DNA of 64,000 nucleotides. Source: Myxococcales bacterium (GTDB lineage: Bacteria; Myxococcota_A; UBA9042; JABWCM01; BTVJ01). The stretch covers positions 11,593 to 75,592 of the forward strand of contig BTVJ01000026.1 of the NCBI GenBank assembly GCA_045863395.1, in the 5' to 3' direction. Both the position numbers and the translations under genes were made by a program. Positions 1-7,357 of this stretch are shown here, one piece after another; position 1 is the stretch's first letter; every line of letters begins with the position of its first letter. Below the pieces are notes generated by a model. It had not been told where the DNA came from and did no database searches. It saw only the letters and a program-made list of their open reading frames with translations.

Positions 1-300
1 TCTCCCTGGATAACAACACCTCGGAGAGAAGTCTCCAGATCACCGCCCTCGGACGCGACAACTTCCGCTGGGTCGGACACGACGAGGCCGGCGAACATCT
101 CGCCATCCTCCAGACCCTGGTCAGCACCTGCGTCTCCTACGGCGTCAACCCACATGCCCACCTCACCGACGTCCTCCTCCGTGTCACCACCCACCCGGCC
201 TCCAAGCTCGACGAGCTGCTCCCGATGAACTGGCAGCCCCCTGGCTGAGCCTCCGGAGCCTCGCGCCCCGCCGACCAGCGACCCCGCCACCACCGTACCT
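1..300 (+). mobile_element. IS66-family insertion sequence, 3' portion truncated by the window edge; right boundary not resolved
   Basis: Contains the C-terminal end of an IS66-type transposase (next feature). The terminal inverted repeat was not identified, so the end coordinate is approximate. Confidence 0.5.
3..248 (+). CDS. IS66-family transposase TnpC, C-terminal fragment (5' end outside window)
   Basis: Frame beginning at nt 3 reads SLDNNTSERSLQITALGRDNFRWVGHDEAGEHLAILQTLVSTCVSYGVNPHAHLTDVLLRVTTHPASKLDELLPMNWQPPG, stop TGA at 246-248. This matches the conserved IS66 transposase C-terminal pattern (DNN-x-ER, ALGR-x-N, S/T-L-I-x-T-C, G-x-N/D-P, HP-x3-L-D/E-ELLP-x-NW), recalled from memory. 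Absent from the ORF track because it has no start codon in the window. Confidence 0.7.
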   Translation, partial: SLDNNTSERSLQITALGRDNFRWVGHDEAGEHLAILQTLVSTCVSYGVNPHAHLTDVLLRVTTHPASKLDELLPMNWQPPG

Positions 301-608
301 GCAGCATGCACGCCTCCGCGCTCACTGTAGCACGGCTGTGGATGTCCGCCCGACGGGGGAGCTCGGACGAGGCCTCGGTCATCGTTTCGGCCACCCGGGT
401 CTGTGGACCGAGCGGGCCGGCCTCCTGTGGGGGCCGCAAGGTCGACCGCCGGCCGGCCGAACGGCTCGTGCGCCCCTCGGTTCTGGCCAGGCATTGGACG
501 AGACGATGACCATGGCCTCGGACGATTACGAAGTTGTCGCGTCCGGGAGTGGTGACCTGAAAGTAGCGCACCGGCTCGAGCATCTCCGCGGAGTGGTGGT
601 AGAGGTAT

Positions 609-977: not shown

Positions 978-1619
978 TCCGGCGACGCCGAACCGCGGCT
1001 CGACCCGACCGGACCCTGACGCTGCGGAGCCCCGGCGCCGGGCCTCCTGCGTCGAACCGGGCACCCGCGCGCCCTGCGCTCCCGCGCCCTTGCACCCGTC
1101 CACCGCCTCGCGCCCCAACCGCCTCAGCCGGCGCCGCCCCCGGAGAGCAACGAGGCTCTTGCGAGGGGAGCTCGCGGAACGCTCTCTCACACGGAGAGGT
1201 CACTGGCGCCGAGAATCGGTTGACAGCGCATGGGGATGGGCGCACACTGCCATCGGGAAACACTTATGAGACATTCAATGTGTGACAGTGCCCTTCGAAC
1301 CGCAGCCAGGACCCGGCAACAGCAGCCGGATGAGAGTTCGATGAGCGCCGAGACGGGCGCTGGCGTGCGACTGGATGCCCGATCACTGTTCCTCTGCGAG
1401 ACATGGGAAGGTCTGGGGGATCGACCCCGCGAGAGTGGGACAACTCCGCGGCATGGCGCGACGAGCAGGTCCAACCTCGGTCTGCACGCCAGGAGCGGAG
1501 ACCAGAGACATGCGAGTCGTACCAAATGGTCAGTCGAAGCATCGTCGCCAGAGAGGTCTGCCGCGGAGGCGGTCCCCTCGACGTTATGTGGTTCGTGGTG
1601 TTCGTCTAAGGTCCCGTGG

Positions 1620-1758
1620 AGGAATAACCTGACCCACCGAGAGCGCCGAATCGCCCCGCTGGCGGTCTGCCGAGACCGCAGGCAGGGTGGGGCCCTTCCA
1701 CGGTCTCGGCAGGCCGCCAGCGGGGATGCAGCGGCGCTCGAATGGACAGGTTATTCCT
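1620..1758 (+). ncRNA. Candidate structured RNA, or imperfect palindromic DNA element, of unknown class
   Basis: Three nested, perfectly complementary helices separated by asymmetric internal loops: 1620-1631 (AGGAATAACCTG) with 1747-1758; 1641-1648 (GAGCGCCG) with 1732-1739; 1654-1678 with 1701-1725 (25 bp including one G-U); apical loop 1679-1700. About 45 bp paired within 139 nt, in a 1.7 kb stretch without a convincing CDS. Strand is undetermined. Confidence 0.3.
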
Positions 1759-1860
1759 GTACGGGCCCTAAACACATCGGAGTGAGTTCGGCCCGCAGGT
1801 GCTATTTACAGAGGAGTAATTGAGATGAGGATGCAGTCCAGTGGCTCGACAGAGCCCCAA

Positions 1861-1870
1861 CCCCCCCCCC
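1861..1870. repeat. Homopolymeric C10 tract (preceded by CCCCAA) about 90 bp upstream of the subtilase-like gene
   Basis: Read directly: agagccccaa cccccccccc gacc. Confidence 0.9.
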
Positions 1871-1958
1871 GACCACCCGCCCCAGAGCATCTGGTTGCGC
1901 AGCGCAGCCGCCCTTCCGGCTTATCAGTGTAGCTGTTTCAGCGCTTCTCCTGTTTGAC

Positions 1959-3935
1959 GTGTCGGTCACCGTTCGAGCCGATGGATTGATGAACCCTTCC
2001 AGTTCCCCAACCCTGGAGTGGGGTGAAGGTGTGGCAAGCGACGGAGGAGGGCTCTACTCGACCTTCGATTCCTCCAGCCTGATGGACGCTCCCCCAAAAG
2101 ACGCATCCTACAATGCCTTTAAAGAGACACAGATTGAGATGGCAGGCATGGGTGAATCGCTCAATGTTCGAGTCTACGCGAAGCTTCTAGATACTCCACC
2201 CGACGAAGTCATTGGGGTCACACTTCTCCTGAAGGAAATTGACTTCGAGTGGGGTAGCTTCGCAGGGGCGGGAGCAGTTGCTCGACATGCTCTCGTCGCC
2301 TCGCGGAAAGCCCAGCTCCAGCCGAGCCAGTACTCTGTGATCAAGGAGCTCGTGAATATTGGTGCCATCGAAATTTCTCCGAACTGGCTCGTCAACCAGA
2401 TTGACGTACAGGTCCATGCGCTGGCTGCAATCGACCTGGCTGCAATCCCTGGAGTCGAAGGCACTCGCTTGAACGCCGATACGAACACCGGCCGAGCTTA
2501 CGGAGGCAGCGAGTCGCAGGACGGAACATTGATTGCCCAGTTCTACGCCCAGAGCCTGGACGGCCGATACGGAGGTCGATCAAACAGCAGGATCCGAGTA
2601 GGTGTAATTGAACCAGGGCCATTGGCGCGGTACCATGCAACCTGGGACTACTCGACAGGCACCGGCTCGCGTGTAACCCGCTACCGCGAGTGTACCGCCA
2701 GCGGGTGCATTGACTCACCCAACAACGCAACCGTGTCTTCGCATGGGACCTGGGTGTCATGGGTGGCAACCGGTAGCATCGAGGCCGGACAGGATCCCGA
2801 CTTCCCGGGAACCTATACAGTCGACCAACGCAACCGCAGTGGCCACCTCAAGGAGTCACTGCTGTACTACTATCAGGCAACCGAGAATTGTGCATCAGGG
2901 AAGCGGGCAATCGAGCAGGCGGTGCTCGACGGGATCGATGTCATCAACTTGTCGCTAGCGTGGGGCGGATCCGAGTCCAACTGCAACTCGGAATATGATT
3001 GCTCGGGACTGAATGCCGCCATTGCCACGGCCCTAGACAGCGGAATTCTGACAGTGGCCTGTGGTGGGAACGCTCCCGACACGTCCGTCTGCCACGTTTG
3101 GTACCCTGGTCTCAGGACCGAAACTGTGGCCGTTGTTGCGCTTCTCAGCGATCCCTCGACGAGCCCGTATGACAGCCTCGGTCTACGCCCCGACGCTTCC
3201 GCGGGAGGGCTTCCGATCAGAACTTTCTTGGGTGCCGGCACGACGACACCAGCCATCGACTTGGCTGCTCCCGGCACATTCACAATGTATGCAACCGTGG
3301 CTCCACACGCCAATGGCTCCAGCACGATTGGAGGATGCTCATTCGCGACGCCTGTCATCACTGCGTCTGCGGGCGCTCTTCGCAACGCGTTTGCAGTGAT
3401 TGGCTGGTCCAACACCAACGCGAAGATGCTCATGGTGAATCTATTGCTGCTCGGCGACGGCTGGAGCGGAAGCGGAGTCCCGGGGTCGTATCCGCCAACT
3501 ACAGTATCGAGCCGCAGTGGATTCGGCCGGGTCCGCGCGCACTGGCCAGACGACGAGAGCATGGCCGGCGATTGGGGCTGGGGCTGGCGTGCCTTCACGA
3601 TCTACGAGGGGCAGACGGTAACGTGGAACGTGGGTACCTCGGGCCCTGAGAGCACCAGCATCACGGAGTGGAAGTGGGCTACGCTCTGGTTCGAGCCCGA
3701 TCTGCAGAACGTCGCCGACATCGACTTCGAGGTATGGGACATGTGCGCGCCAGGAGGCCCTGTCATGCTCCACGCTGACTGGTCGCTGAGCTTGCGCTCT
3801 CGGTTCAACCTCCTCGGACCCAGCATTGGAGGGAAGTGTCTGCAAATGCGAGCATACGGCTACAGGGTTCCTGCACAAGGAAGAGTGATCTATAGTGCCG
3901 ACTACTACCATTCGGGCACTCCGTCTATGTACTAG
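1959..3935 (+). CDS. Subtilase-like (peptidase S8 family) protein without a signal peptide, with about 200 aa of N-terminal sequence of unknown function
   Basis: 658-aa ORF starting at GTG 1959 (first ATG at 1989). S8-like motifs in order: RVGVIEPG (Asp-region position, Glu in place of the usual Asp), SSHGTWVSWVATGS (His motif), INLSLAWGGS, VACGGNAPDTS (Asn motif), GGCSFATPVITASAGAL (Ser motif). No N-terminal hydrophobic signal. G+C visibly lower than the flanking genes. RBS not obvious. Confidence 0.75.
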   Translation: MSVTVRADGLMNPSSSPTLEWGEGVASDGGGLYSTFDSSSLMDAPPKDASYNAFKETQIEMAGMGESLNVRVYAKLLDTPPDEVIGVTLLLKEIDFEWGSFAGAGAVARHALVASRKAQLQPSQYSVIKELVNIGAIEISPNWLVNQIDVQVHALAAIDLAAIPGVEGTRLNADTNTGRAYGGSESQDGTLIAQFYAQSLDGRYGGRSNSRIRVGVIEPGPLARYHATWDYSTGTGSRVTRYRECTASGCIDSPNNATVSSHGTWVSWVATGSIEAGQDPDFPGTYTVDQRNRSGHLKESLLYYYQATENCASGKRAIEQAVLDGIDVINLSLAWGGSESNCNSEYDCSGLNAAIATALDSGILTVACGGNAPDTSVCHVWYPGLRTETVAVVALLSDPSTSPYDSLGLRPDASAGGLPIRTFLGAGTTTPAIDLAAPGTFTMYATVAPHANGSSTIGGCSFATPVITASAGALRNAFAVIGWSNTNAKMLMVNLLLLGDGWSGSGVPGSYPPTTVSSRSGFGRVRAHWPDDESMAGDWGWGWRAFTIYEGQTVTWNVGTSGPESTSITEWKWATLWFEPDLQNVADIDFEVWDMCAPGGPVMLHADWSLSLRSRFNLLGPSIGGKCLQMRAYGYRVPAQGRVIYSADYYHSGTPSMY

Positions 3936-4012
3936 TCTCGACTCGGTAACCCAGTGGAGAGGGACAGTTCAGGACGAGGTACGCGGCCTGGTGGTACCAG
4001 ACAGGAGAAGTC

Positions 4013-4738
4013 ATGAAGAGTGTGAGGCATCTCGTGTTGACGGTGCTGGCATTGGTCGCCTGTGACGGCGCTCCGGAGTCCAGCTCCGCCGACAAGTCCG
4101 CAGTGGCGGACGGTTTGGACGCGGGCGCCACCGGCTGCGACGTGTGTGTGGCGGCTGAGACCCTGAACCCGACTCTCGGTCCGTGCGCGTCAGGTACGCT
4201 GCCAACCACGGGAAGGTTGTACGACCAGGCTGCTGACTGCGTGTCGCCGGAGACCACCGTGCTGGCATGCTACCCCGATATAAGTCCCGACGCCTACGCT
4301 ACGCAGGGCAGTGGCTGCTACGTGCACGAGCCAACGGGCGTTGCCTTCATCGCCGTCTGGGACGGTCCGGAACTCTCCGGGGAGTACCATCGCTGCGACG
4401 AGAAGTATTGGCAGATCCGTGAGGCGGCCGCCGAGGCGGAGCCCTGCGTGGACGGTGCTCCCGCTCAAGCATGTGGGAGTCCCGACGGGGCCGGTGAGTG
4501 TGGTGCCGGCTGCACTCCGGTCTACGGCGCGCCGTGGAACGTGGGTGAGGGCTGCGCTCAGGGGAAGGTGGAGTTGGGCTGGTGTACCTATTTGTATAGC
4601 GACGCTCCTCCCCACTGGTGCGTGGTGGATGAAGCAACAGGTACTGTCTACCTAGGCGTCAACGGAGTGCCTCACGGCCACCGACAGTGCACGGAGGCGG
4701 AGCTACCGGCTGCCTCGGCGGTGCAGTGGTGTCCTTGA
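4013..4738 (+). CDS. Cys-rich lipoprotein, function unknown
   Basis: AGGAGA RBS 6 nt upstream of ATG. N-terminus MKSVRHLVLTVLALVAC has a signal peptide with lipobox L-V-A-C. Mature part has many Cys, probably disulfide-bonded. Confidence 0.7.
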   Translation: MKSVRHLVLTVLALVACDGAPESSSADKSAVADGLDAGATGCDVCVAAETLNPTLGPCASGTLPTTGRLYDQAADCVSPETTVLACYPDISPDAYATQGSGCYVHEPTGVAFIAVWDGPELSGEYHRCDEKYWQIREAAAEAEPCVDGAPAQACGSPDGAGECGAGCTPVYGAPWNVGEGCAQGKVELGWCTYLYSDAPPHWCVVDEATGTVYLGVNGVPHGHRQCTEAELPAASAVQWCP

Positions 4739-5023
4739 AGTTGCGCTGCATGCCCAGTGTCGCACCCCGTTGCACGCAAGCTGTCCGAGAACTCCGTAGT
4801 GAATCCCGGAACGGAACGTCGTCATGATCGAGCCGAGGTCCGGGCTGTCGTTCCGTTGTTCCAGTGAGCGAGAGCCAGCGCGCTGAGAGGGTGGTGCCAC
4901 CCGGGCTGTGGCGGGGGGCCGACAAGCGGCGACAACTTCGTCGACGACCCGGGGATGTCCACACGCCGATCTTGCGTCCCGTGGTGCCCCCGGCTATGGT
5001 GCCCCCCTTCCCGGAGCCGACCG

Positions 5024-7357
5024 ATGACGCCCGCGACGGACCGCACACCCTGGGTGCTCGCCAGCCTGCTCGGCGCCGTCGCCGCGGGGCTCGTGCTGGT
5101 GGTGCATGCGGTCGTGACGGGCGACGGGGCGCTCGACGTGCCGGGCGCCGGGGACACGGCCGCTGCCATCCTCTTCCTCTTCGGTACGACGTGGGCCGTC
5201 GCTCTGACCTGGGGCCTGGCCGTGGGAGTGGTGACCGGGGCCGTCCACGCGACCTTGCATGGGTGGTGGCAAGGCTTCCGCGCCCGCCTCGCCGACCCCG
5301 AGCGCGACGTCTCCACCGCCGCCGGCCTGCTCGCTGCGGCGCTGGCTGCAGCGGTCTGGATGGTGCTCTTCGTGCGCCTCTACGCGAGCCGCGACGAGGA
5401 GTTCCTCATCAAGGTGGGCACGGCGTCCCGCTTCTTCGCCGTCGGGACGGCCGCGCTCCTCGCCGTCGCCGTGGCTGCCTGGTTCCCGGTCCACCGCCTG
5501 CTCCGGTGCGCCCTCGTCTGGCGCATCGACCGCCTCCGCTCCGCCGCGTGGCCCCTGACGCGGCGCCTCACGGTGGCTGCCCTGGCGTGCGCCGCGCTCG
5601 CCGTCGCCGCCGCCGTGTGGCTCATGGAGTCCAACGAGGAGTTGGCCAATGTGCGGCGCCTCCCGCTGTACCTCCTCACGTTGGCGCTGCTCCACGGGGT
5701 GGCGACCGCCGCCCTGCGCCGCCTCCACCTGCGCCACGGGTGGGCGCTCCTCGGGGCGCCTGTCATCGTCGTGATCCTCACCGTCCTGGGCATTGACCGG
5801 GTGCCCGCCGCCCACGAGGCCGCCGAGACGCGCTCCGACGTGCAGGCCATGCTCTTGCGCTTGCTCCGAGGCCCGCTGGACCTCGACGGGGACGGCTACG
5901 CGGCGCTGCTCGGGGGCGGCGACTGCGACGACTGGGACGCGGCGGTGGGGCCGCACGCCGGTGAGGTGGCGGGCAACGGCGTCGACGACGACTGCCAGGA
6001 CGGGGACGCGGACCCGACGGCCGCCGCCGCGTGGGAGGCCGACCCGTCGCTGCTCGCCGAGGACGAGCCGCCGAGCGCCCCCGTCGACACGCCCAGGCCC
6101 ATCCACGGGACCGACGCGCCCGCCGCCCCAGTCACCGCCGACGCGCCCGCGGGGCCCGGGACCGTCGAGGCCCCCACGCCCCGCCCGGACGCGCCCCCGC
6201 CCCTGCCGCGCAAGGGCCTGAACGTGCTCTTCATCGTCGTCGATACGCTGCGCGCCGACCATGTCGGCTTCTACGGCTACGAGCGGGACACGACCCCGGC
6301 CATCGACGCGCTGGCGCGCCAGTCGGTGGTGTTCCGCTACGCCTACGCCCAGGCCAACAACACGCCCCGGTCCATGCCGTCGCTCCTGACGTCGCGCTTC
6401 CCGAGCGCCATCCGGTGGGTGCGCCTCGACCGCAACTACCCCCAGCTCAAGGACGCCGAGCACACCGTCGGGGAGTCCCTGGCGGATGGGGGCTACCGGG
6501 TCGAGGCGGAGACGTCGCACTACTACTTCGTGCCCAAGCGCAGACTCGACCAGGGCTTCCACGAGTGGAGCAACCCCGGGGCGGGCACCATCGCTGAGGC
6601 CAACGAGGCGGTGACGGCGCCCAAGCTGCTGCCCCGGGCCATGGCGCGCCTGGAGAAGCTGTCACAGCGCGAGGAGCCCTGGTTCCTGTTCGTGCACTTC
6701 TTCGAGCCCCACGCCTCGTACATCCCGCACAAGCCCCCGGCGGACTTCGGGCGCACGCTGAAGGACCGCTATGACGGCGAGATCCGGTTCACCGACGACC
6801 ACGTGGGCCAGCTCCTGGCGAAGCTGGACGCGCTGGGGCACCGGGAGGACACGCTCGTCATCCTGACCTCGGACCACGGGGAGGCCTTCCGCGAGAAGGG
6901 CTACTTCTTCCATGGCCACTCGGTCTACAACGTGGAGCTGCGGGTCCCGCTCGTCATGCGCCTGCCAGGCGTCGACCCGCGGGTCATCGACGAGCGGGTG
7001 GCGCTGCTCGACGTCGTCCCGACCATGCTGTCCGCCATCGGGCTGCCCATCGCCCCGACCATGCAAGGTGTGGACCTGGTCCCTACCATCCTGCACGGCG
7101 AGCGGCGCGGCCTGCCCATCTACGCGGAGCTGCTGCCCTACCCCAACTGGCCGGAGGACCAGCGCGCGTTGATCCTCGGCCACCACAAGGTGCTCTACAC
7201 GAAGAAGGGCAACGTCTGGGAGCTCTACGACATCCAGGCCGACCCCTTCGAGAAGGAGAACCTGTTCCGCACCCACTCGAAGGCGCAGACCTACAAGAAG
7301 GCGCTGCTCGACTGGATGGCGCTCCACGCCCACCCGAAGGCCATGCGCGGGCCGTGA
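5024..7357 (+). CDS. Polytopic membrane protein with C-terminal sulfatase-fold (alkaline-phosphatase superfamily) domain and a central DGDG/DDDC putative metal-binding motif
   Basis: ORF 4955..7357; preferred start ATG 5024 (GGAG 9 nt upstream). Several N-terminal hydrophobic helices, then DLDGDGYAALLGGGDCDDWDAAVGPHAGEVAGNGVDDDCQDGDAD, a Pro/Ala-rich linker, then sulfatase-like motifs LNVLFIVVDTLRADHVGFYGY, NNTPRSMPSLLTS, TSDHGE. The signature position normally Cys/Ser before TPxR is Asn. Confidence 0.8.
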   Translation: MTPATDRTPWVLASLLGAVAAGLVLVVHAVVTGDGALDVPGAGDTAAAILFLFGTTWAVALTWGLAVGVVTGAVHATLHGWWQGFRARLADPERDVSTAAGLLAAALAAAVWMVLFVRLYASRDEEFLIKVGTASRFFAVGTAALLAVAVAAWFPVHRLLRCALVWRIDRLRSAAWPLTRRLTVAALACAALAVAAAVWLMESNEELANVRRLPLYLLTLALLHGVATAALRRLHLRHGWALLGAPVIVVILTVLGIDRVPAAHEAAETRSDVQAMLLRLLRGPLDLDGDGYAALLGGGDCDDWDAAVGPHAGEVAGNGVDDDCQDGDADPTAAAAWEADPSLLAEDEPPSAPVDTPRPIHGTDAPAAPVTADAPAGPGTVEAPTPRPDAPPPLPRKGLNVLFIVVDTLRADHVGFYGYERDTTPAIDALARQSVVFRYAYAQANNTPRSMPSLLTSRFPSAIRWVRLDRNYPQLKDAEHTVGESLADGGYRVEAETSHYYFVPKRRLDQGFHEWSNPGAGTIAEANEAVTAPKLLPRAMARLEKLSQREEPWFLFVHFFEPHASYIPHKPPADFGRTLKDRYDGEIRFTDDHVGQLLAKLDALGHREDTLVILTSDHGEAFREKGYFFHGHSVYNVELRVPLVMRLPGVDPRVIDERVALLDVVPTMLSAIGLPIAPTMQGVDLVPTILHGERRGLPIYAELLPYPNWPEDQRALILGHHKVLYTKKGNVWELYDIQADPFEKENLFRTHSKAQTYKKALLDWMALHAHPKAMRGP

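Follow-up and report, generated by a model that had tools for sequence, protein, structure and literature searches.

Myxobacteria are predators and social bacteria that rely on exported proteases. To our knowledge, few protease-partner systems have been worked out in this group, PopC/PopD being the main one. The AprA/AprI system of Pseudomonas and the PrtA/Inh systems of Serratia, Erwinia and Photorhabdus consist of serralysin metalloproteases and of inhibitors that belong to one homologous family. PopC of Myxococcus xanthus is a 50.8 kDa subtilase without a signal peptide, which is periplasmic and then secreted, is restrained in a complex with PopD, and generates the C-signal by cleavage of a surface protein (PMC6434023). 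Here we analyze a subtilase gene and the gene of a Cys-rich lipoprotein directly downstream of it, found in a 64,000-nt stretch of DNA from a Myxococcales bacterium (contig BTVJ01000026.1; this whole stretch is called the window below, and coordinates without a locus name refer to it).

The gene pair of the window has features in common with both kinds of systems. As in AprA/AprI and PrtA/Inh, the gene of an exported protease adjoins a small gene whose product bears a signal, but the partners in the present case are non-homologous and Cys-rich, and inhibition here is hypothetical. PopC-PopD is likewise a myxobacterial subtilase controlled by a complex-forming partner, and the signal-less PopC is a precedent for the subtilase open reading frame (ORF) of the window. 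Among the differences, PopC has no C-terminal domain (PMC6434023), unlike the window subtilase family (these proteins were compared by description only). We found no description of PopD as a Cys-rich lipoprotein, while relatives of the window enzyme carry classical lipoprotein signals.

Judged by gene order, the subtilase and the Cys-rich lipoprotein form a genuine, conserved and recurrent two-gene cassette of Myxococcota. Locus context was taken from relatives in Polyangiales and Myxococcales metagenome-assembled genomes and in metagenomes (loci are denoted by L numbers, and individual proteins by P numbers). In 14 loci, or about ten once near-identical contigs are merged, the Cys-rich lipoprotein gene is the next one after the subtilase gene on the same strand (the window, L002, L003/L004, L005/L013, L006, L007, L015, L016, L017, L019/L020, and further L022/L024, L023, L025/L026). 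The gap between the subtilase stop and the partner start is 1-77 nt, with 407 nt in L007; the spacing is tight, the genes often overlap, and their translation is often coupled. The partners carry a signal peptide, a lipobox and 5-9.5% Cys, and the pairing is kept down to 25-28% identity of the subtilases. Moreover, each of the 16 partner sequences has an even number of Cys beyond that of the lipobox (range 6-20), as expected of fully disulfide-bonded extracytoplasmic proteins. Since the flanking genes vary between the loci, the unit comprises the subtilase and partner genes.

The initial annotation of the window noted the two genes as adjacent on the same strand with a strong ribosome-binding site between them, which the coordinates in Table 1 bear out, and offered a protease/partner pair as speculation. 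Nearly every subtilase relative with readable downstream DNA turned out to have a Cys-rich lipoprotein directly after it. The gene-neighbourhood comparison proposed in the annotation thus found the genes together, and not in separate places with no co-occurrence, the outcome named there as speaking against a module. Literature searches yielded nothing relevant on a myxobacterial subtilase with a Cys-rich lipoprotein.

The partners themselves are diverse. Three of them (L002, L003, L004) contain the FGE-sulfatase domain PF03781, and the remaining ones belong to no Pfam, NCBIfam or PADLOC family. The best NCBIfam matches of the PF03781 partners are GldK/PorK and PvdO; GldK/PorK, GldJ and PvdO are likewise PF03781 lipoproteins, being scaffold proteins in the cell envelope, either non-catalytic or of the redox type. 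The scores against GldK/PorK and PvdO are far below the family cut-offs, though, and the window partner has no PF03781 domain. In L018 the subtilase itself ends in three fused Cys-rich repeats at its C-terminus, and a separate partner gene is absent. This presence of the Cys-rich module as a part of the enzyme argues for physical association of the two proteins. The fused repeats (L018:7900-8283, P0032, P0085) come in two or three copies of about 42 amino acids with the pattern C..G.GDCD.D.DC..G..C....G..YG....DVC; the L018 repeats were tested against NCBIfam and gave no match. Two other subtilases, P0086 and P0129, have LamG-like C-terminal extensions. The partner gene is present as a tandem duplicate at L016:3354-4282 and L007:9502-10298.

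Table 1. Features of the window in and around the subtilase-lipoprotein cassette (coordinates from the first letter of the window).
Feature	Coordinates	Strand	Remarks
IS66-family transposase, C-terminal end, last 81 codons	3..245	+	PF13817 (DDE_Tnp_IS66_C) E 9e-10; DDE_Tnp_IS66 E 0.0047
Short inverted IS66-like fragment ('GRDNF' region)	530..568	-	inverted repeat 36-65/530-559, 87% complementary
Small ORF, 120-125 aa	603..977	+	GC3 0.86, host-like codon usage
Imperfect palindrome, 159 bp	1610..1768		terminal inverted repeats GG[T/G]CCCGT; TAA at 1607-1609 and 1769-1771
Shine-Dalgarno GAGGAG (1811-1816) and ATG (1825-1827)	1811..1827	+	read from the sequence; +1 frame relative to the subtilase
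Subtilase open reading frame, 703 codons	1824..3935	+	first in-frame canonical start GTG 1959
Run of ten C	1861..1870	+	one extra C or a -1 slip joins ATG 1825 to the 703-codon frame
Subtilase ORF as called, 658 aa	1959-3935	+	Pfam Peptidase_S8 (PF00082) E 9.3e-14, aa 255-495
S8 catalytic domain	2571..3458	+	Glu218 (2610-2612), His262 (2742-2744), Ser461 (3339-3341), oxyanion Asn371 (3069-3071)
Family-specific C-terminal domain, about 150 aa, beta-rich	3471..3932	+	conserved columns, WKWA...W.E.DL.NV.DID...YYHSG
Ribosome-binding site AGGAG of the lipoprotein gene	4003..4007	+	5 nt before ATG 4013
Cys-rich lipoprotein, 241 aa	4013-4738	+	signal peptide and lipobox LVAC, Cys17 (4061-4063), 16 further Cys
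Weak hairpin after the lipoprotein gene	4808..4856	+	9-bp stem 4810-4818/4848-4856; near the right edge of the low-polymorphism block
Sulfatase-family gene, membrane-anchored product	4955-7357		right of the cassette

The subtilase appears to be an S8 variant with a predicted Glu-His-Ser triad. Its match to PF00082 scores 51.8 bits against the cut-off of 21.8, and its best PDB sequence matches are sphericase and subtilisins, while the best NCBIfam match, mycosin of the type VII secretion system, is far below the cut-off. Alignment with subtilisin BPN' by hhalign (probability 98%) pairs E218 with D32, H262 with H64, N371 with N155 and S461 with S221. Thus, the His, Asn and Ser motifs follow in the canonical order of family S8, but the Asp of the canonical Asp-His-Ser triad is replaced by Glu218, situated in the motif RVGVIEPG. 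All 15 locus-derived relatives that cover this site have Glu here. In the wider family, most members have Glu and a minority Asp (57 sampled sequences, read by eye), and such an interchange across the family is the pattern expected of a triad acid. Sedolisins (S53) share the subtilisin fold and have Glu in place of His as the general base (Ser-Glu-Asp); the enzyme considered here resembles them in having a catalytic Glu (as predicted), but retains His, with Glu substituting for Asp. No report of a Glu-His-Ser subtilase was found in literature searches.

An exhaustive profile search placed 414 clusters in the subtilase family at E<=1e-30. The best 150 of these 414 clusters are mostly near full length, with a minority of shorter fragments. 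The apparent rarity of the family in a word-indexed protein search, which gave only 6 relatives, was corrected by the exhaustive one. The relatives are 686-704 aa long and have N-terminal lipoprotein signals with LxGC lipoboxes, and the six Cys residues invariant in the window subtilase and its relatives fit an extracytoplasmic enzyme. The first 200 or so residues show an alternating strand/helix pattern and may be a prodomain. The strands of the C-terminal domain are predicted in a low-confidence model. Neither the N-terminal 200 nor the C-terminal 150 residues belong to a named family, and five members tested for the latter gave no Pfam match at E up to 10. The clade is uncharacterised, its members normally being lipoproteins with Glu replacing the catalytic Asp, and it differs from other S8 peptidases in this usual Glu, in its own N- and C-terminal regions, in the lipoprotein anchoring, and in the obligate-looking Cys-rich neighbour.

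The window copy departs from its relatives at the 5' end of the gene. The subtilase frame is open from position 1824 and contains no ATG, GTG or TTG between 1824 and 1959, while a hydrophobic signal-like segment, LISVAVSALLLF, is encoded in this frame at 1920-1955, that is, upstream of the first canonical start. A good translation start exists in another frame. The Shine-Dalgarno sequence GAGGAG is situated 8 nt before ATG 1825, and the frame that begins there stops at TAG 1930-1932. The two frames overlap at a run of ten C, where a single extra C or a -1 slip would join them. The run has the same length, with no variation visible, in the window and three further, independent Logan assemblies (L001, L008, L009), and its presence in four independent assemblies argues that it is not an assembly error; L063, being 100% identical to the window at this run, was not counted as independent evidence. 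In a positional alignment with P0017 the ancestral Met falls inside the C run, and a Phe (TTT) is found near the position of the lipobox Cys. Thus, of the features that make a lipoprotein, the window subtilase has the hydrophobic core, while it lacks the in-frame start and apparently the lipobox Cys.

The initial annotation described the enzyme as an intracellular subtilase. This applies only to the ORF as mechanically called. By comparison with its relatives, the subtilase is not intracellular by ancestry, but would be a decapitated member of a lipoprotein family. Polymorphisms between strains count five nonsynonymous and one synonymous change in the subtilase gene, a ratio that is unlikely under dN/dS (the ratio of nonsynonymous to synonymous rates) of 0.2 by a binomial estimate (p about 0.03, on six sites). 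Taken together with the lost start, this window copy has probably been recently disabled or is frameshift-dependent. Two Logan contigs from different samples start 2 and 9 bases before the C run, within 1852-1870; the cause may be an artefact of coverage at the homopolymer or hairpin, or else a structural variant.

The partner gene, on the contrary, looks intact and under purifying selection. The N-terminus of the lipoprotein reads MKSVRHLVLTVLALVAC/DG, with Cys17 as the predicted lipidation site, and conforms to the lipobox [LVI][ASTVI][GAS]C by pattern match alone. The mature part holds two copies of a disulfide-rich domain of about 70 residues, at aa 55-121 (4175-4375) and aa 154-226 (4472-4690). 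The first repeat, which was outside the training set, was recovered by a hidden Markov model (HMM) built from the other units (i-E 3e-5), and a leave-one-out model of the domain from four other loci retrieves the window lipoprotein with E 9e-6; this domain HMM also links L006 and L019, marginally (E 0.004). The window lipoprotein matches no Pfam (E up to 5), NCBIfam or PADLOC family. Its closest homolog, 59% identical, is encoded in L061 (a contig of ERR13669120, 1003 nt, 71% GC). Comparison with this ortholog gives dN/dS of 0.21, and both proteins have 17 Cys.

Upstream of the subtilase there is a long imperfect palindrome, the sole inverted repeat of that size in the window, which ends 42 nt before the Shine-Dalgarno sequence at 1811. 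Folding of the 201-nt stretch that includes the hairpin 1609-1769 yields -134 kcal/mol, with z-scores of -10.1 on the plus strand and -11.7 on the minus strand, and none of 200 shuffled sequences folds as well. The arms 1654-1678 and 1701-1725 are 96% complementary, and the mismatch pattern favours neither strand. The initial annotation, whose module spans 1230-4860, counted a structured element among its components. This hairpin is indeed strongly structured, but the stretch to its left is not: 1230-1600 has no coding signature, and 1440-1585 folds at the chance level (z -0.8). Nor does the hairpin belong to the cassette, as none of the four further loci checked for it (L002, L003, L004, L005) has it ahead of the subtilase gene. 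Searches of viral contigs and of the other loci retrieved gave no copy, the one in the window being the only one in 64 kb, and in Rfam only generic hairpin models match it.

The hairpin may be a lineage-specific insertion of the miniature inverted-repeat transposable element (MITE) type, an assignment that we make tentatively and with less than even confidence, from its architecture. Palindromic MITEs such as ERIC/IRU and Correia elements are imperfect palindromes of 100-160 bp with terminal inverted repeats and short target duplications, situated in intergenic regions near gene starts. The hairpin resembles them in size, palindromy, terminal inverted repeats (GGKCCCGTNNAGGAATAACCTG) and the flanking TAA, so that both terminal repeats and a short target duplication are found, though the 3-bp repeat is weak. 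It differs from them in that it has been seen once and no parent insertion sequence (IS) has been identified.

In the arrangement that we propose for the family, both proteins would be exported by the Sec pathway and lipidated, and the pair would come together at the cell surface or in the periplasm, where the Cys-rich protein would bind the protease as a partner without catalytic function. The partner would most likely be an adaptor or targeting subunit that decides which targets the protease attacks, with a role in latency or inhibition a close second. This function of the pair we infer from the sequences of the two genes and their arrangement. The adaptor role is favoured by three observations, namely that the partner slot is filled by unrelated scaffolds of the binding type (the FGE-type fold and varied disulfide-rich domains), that the fused versions are permanent C-terminal modules, and that selection still acts on the partner in cases of a damaged or missing enzyme. 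In the window copy an exported product would require a -1 shift at the C run after initiation at ATG 1825; otherwise translation would start from GTG 1959 or ATG 1989 and result in a signal-less protein. The reading as a whole (a conserved cassette with the partner as a non-catalytic subunit, a window copy that has been disabled or depends on a frameshift, and a hairpin of the MITE type) has, in our estimation, an even chance of being correct.

A number of results weigh against it. In most loci BLASTP finds no similarity among the partners beyond trivial pairs, and in the leave-one-out tests of the domain HMM L015 and L016/17 are not linked to the others. As the partners are mostly without detectable similarity, the statement that they are the same kind of protein rests on shared features and not on homology. 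L014 contains a subtilase relative without any partner. In L061 no subtilase gene is found within the 220 nt visible upstream of the partner gene, so a partner can exist alone. The AlphaFold models are too poor for fold searches, with pLDDT (predicted local distance difference test) values of 47.6 for the subtilase (7 sequences) and 43.2 for the partner (3 sequences). As regards the damage to the window copy, the polymorphism ratio comes from six sites, four of them on a single haplotype; over 2 kb the subtilase frame is free of internal stops and frameshifts, and the catalytic residues are all retained, which means that the enzyme may still be functional; and PopC of M. xanthus reaches the periplasm without a signal peptide (PMC6434023). 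As to the hairpin, a single copy has been seen, and the 3-bp match of its flanks is expected by chance in about 5-10% of cases.

The role of the partner can be understood differently. Canonical serine-protease inhibitors are typically small, disulfide-rich domains, sometimes in tandem repeats, and some of the partners have all these properties. Accordingly built, the partner could be a cognate inhibitor or latency factor, co-exported stoichiometrically, that would obstruct the active site, or retain the enzyme until its release, and so protect the envelope of the producer. The tight and often overlapping spacing of the genes suggests just such stoichiometric co-expression, and the operons of AprA/AprI and PrtA/Inh are one precedent, in addition to the complex by which PopD restrains PopC in M. 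xanthus (PMC6434023). Still, we consider inhibition rather unlikely, because non-homologous partners (the FGE-sulfatase fold and at least three other types) would have to act on a conserved protease surface, permanent fusions of Cys-rich repeats or LamG-like domains are more typical of binding modules, and no known inhibitor family was matched in the Pfam and NCBIfam searches. Less probable again, and distinctly unlikely, is that the partner is a dedicated substrate, a pro-protein of a toxin, signal or adhesin matured or shed by the subtilase in the manner of PopC acting on p25/CsgA or of leader peptidases of the LanP type. The conserved adjacency and the generation of the C-signal by PopC (PMC6434023) are consistent with this possibility, and a hypervariable partner would be in keeping with a secreted effector shaped by diversifying selection. 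On the other hand, the partners share no conserved cleavage motif or linker, the window partner is under purifying selection despite the damaged protease gene, the partner persists in L061 with no protease gene visible upstream, and Cys-rich repeats fused to the enzyme would be unusual for a substrate. The most far-reaching version, an improbable one at present, extends the adaptor role to an unrecognised two-component system of envelope proteolysis in Myxococcota, in which a Glu-His-Ser subtilase would have its targets or activation set by an interchangeable, rapidly diversifying disulfide-rich lipoprotein subunit (e.g. for the recognition of prey or kin surfaces), and in this lineage export would be switched by slippage at the C run, which separates the out-of-frame start from the frame of the signal peptide.

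The signs of damage in the window also admit other explanations, for the subtilase as well as for the hairpin. An undamaged subtilase could be made as a signal-less product from GTG 1959 or ATG 1989, being cytoplasmic or exported non-classically like PopC (PMC6434023), or the C run could be a switch, where a programmed -1 frameshift, transcriptional slippage or phase variation controls the exported form. The intact frame with its catalytic residues agrees with this, as do the strong Shine-Dalgarno sequence and ATG placed one base out of frame ahead of a slippery homopolymer, the signal-like segment still in frame upstream of the first canonical start, and the two Logan contigs that begin at the run. 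It is nevertheless unlikely, given the constant C10 in all four independent assemblies, the absence of a stimulatory RNA structure downstream of the run (z -1.3), the Phe that apparently occupies the lipobox Cys position and the excess of nonsynonymous polymorphisms; moreover, the six invariant Cys speak against a cytoplasmic enzyme. A functional role of the hairpin is still harder to defend. It could be an orphan retron msd, a regulator or stabiliser of the subtilase mRNA in its 5' untranslated region, or an insulating terminator without a U-tract, and its position 42 nt ahead of the Shine-Dalgarno sequence speaks for such a role. The msDNA hairpins of myxobacterial type XIII retrons are about 160 nt long, and the length and the near-perfect stem of the window hairpin recall the msd of Mx162/Sa163. 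Type XIII retrons are myxobacterial (PMC7736814), and L002 contains one at a distance of 1 kb from its homologous cassette. We nevertheless find a functional element very improbable: there is no reverse transcriptase in the 64 kb, where tblastn with the type XIII reverse transcriptase and its SWIM partner yielded no match better than E 0.1; when 1400-1830 is folded, neither strand shows flanking complementarity of the a1/a2 type; neither a retron nor any other functional family of Rfam matches; the hairpin is missing upstream of the homologous genes checked; its mismatches favour neither strand; and the available copies are invariant and so give no covariation. As the main explanation the retron was rejected, the window having no reverse transcriptase, group II intron or retron RNA signal.

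The type XIII retron genes of L002 (L002:13044-22061; GCA_964564815.1, CAZMEE010000145.1) are situated downstream of the subtilase/FGE pair and encode RT_XIII (E 2.8e-162), SWIM_XIII (E 1.2e-195) and a protein of >1990 aa. The same locus has a 290-nt irregular hairpin upstream of an HU gene (L002:1998-2284, z -7.2), which has no Rfam match and no similarity to the window hairpin.

Returning to the cassette with a non-catalytic partner, several hundred clusters of lipoprotein subtilases form a family defined by the usual Glu and by a near-constant, hypervariable lipoprotein neighbour. Should the partner determine specificity or latency, nature would here provide a collection of protease adaptors or inhibitors that can be exchanged for one another. 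The predicted Glu-His-Ser triad would offer subtilase enzymology a useful case.

The cassette copy of the window lies in a foreign-looking island of low GC content at third codon positions (GC3) beside insertion-sequence debris. Overall GC of the window is about 70%, and it drops to 0.55-0.62 over approximately 1800-4200, spanning both genes, with 0.68-0.80 in the flanks. GC3 is 0.66 in the subtilase gene and 0.74 in the lipoprotein gene, against 0.82-0.98 in the remaining genes of the window. The composition shift reported in the initial annotation is thus reproduced, and the accessory-like character that it ascribed to this region is further seen in the polymorphism between strains. Across different samples, the block occurs in seven Logan contigs with 99-100% identity. 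Compared to the window, L008 has 6 differences in the 3009 positions of 1852-4860 and 17 in the 645 positions to the right, i.e. the rate rises from about 0.2% to about 2.6%, and the module is approximately ten times less polymorphic than its right flank. The first polymorphism of the flank is at 4881. Several contigs end at 4853 (L009, L012, L063) or 4861 (L001), and L011 departs from the window sequence about 100 bases to the right of these positions. The GC3 and polymorphism data indicate that the block is younger than the right flank or has been exchanged independently of it, with an edge near 4853-4881. The window copy looks like a cassette acquired horizontally and now probably decaying, within a patch rich in insertion sequences.

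The hairpin after the lipoprotein gene had been suggested as the 3' edge of the module. The stem exists and coincides with the contig ends and with the jump in polymorphism density, but as a structure it is at the chance level (z -1.0; 28 of 200 shuffled sequences fold as well), has no U-tract, and was not reported as an intrinsic terminator by the terminator scan.

To the left of the cassette, what was described earlier as an IS66 remnant is the end of a transposase gene with the stop codon at 246-248, and the element runs off the left edge of the window; a search for inverted repeats did not place its right terminus. The IS66 C-terminus recurs weakly by tblastn at 568-530 (62% identity over 13 aa). 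The transposase end is not alone in this flank, as the ORF 603-977 is probably the C-terminal part of another transposase, judging by its homolog P0010, which is 56% identical and has a weak match to the C-terminus of IS6 transposases (E 0.033, below the cut-off). P0010 (L064:542-1066) adjoins a complete group II intron (D1-D4-6 E 1.6e-41), and its gene is preceded by a perfect 32-nt palindrome at L064:422-453. The reverse transcriptase found beside it is the intron maturase, hence no clue to a retron. A group II intron remnant was also considered for 1200-1820 and ruled out, since no D1-D4 or D5 model of Rfam matches there. The approximately 630 bases between the ORF 603-977 and the long hairpin have no coding signature, and plasmid searches with 248-1960 and with this ORF gave no matches. 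PADLOC gave no anti-phage defence matches for the subtilase or any partner tested, and the reading of the cassette as a defence system was rejected on these grounds.

On the right, the product of the sulfatase-family gene starts with a long hydrophobic region, and a weak Cys motif resembling MopE is present in it too. Searches for identical proteins gave no record of this sulfatase or of the window subtilase. Its position beside a cassette some of whose partners contain the FGE-sulfatase domain may be a coincidence. Finally, 111 bases that follow the stop codon of the IS66 transposase (window 262-371) recur in inverted orientation at L011:1136-1246 with 77% identity, approximately 170 bases past the point where this contig departs from the window sequence to the right of the cassette; the recurring sequence could represent the end of an IS or else a small repeat.

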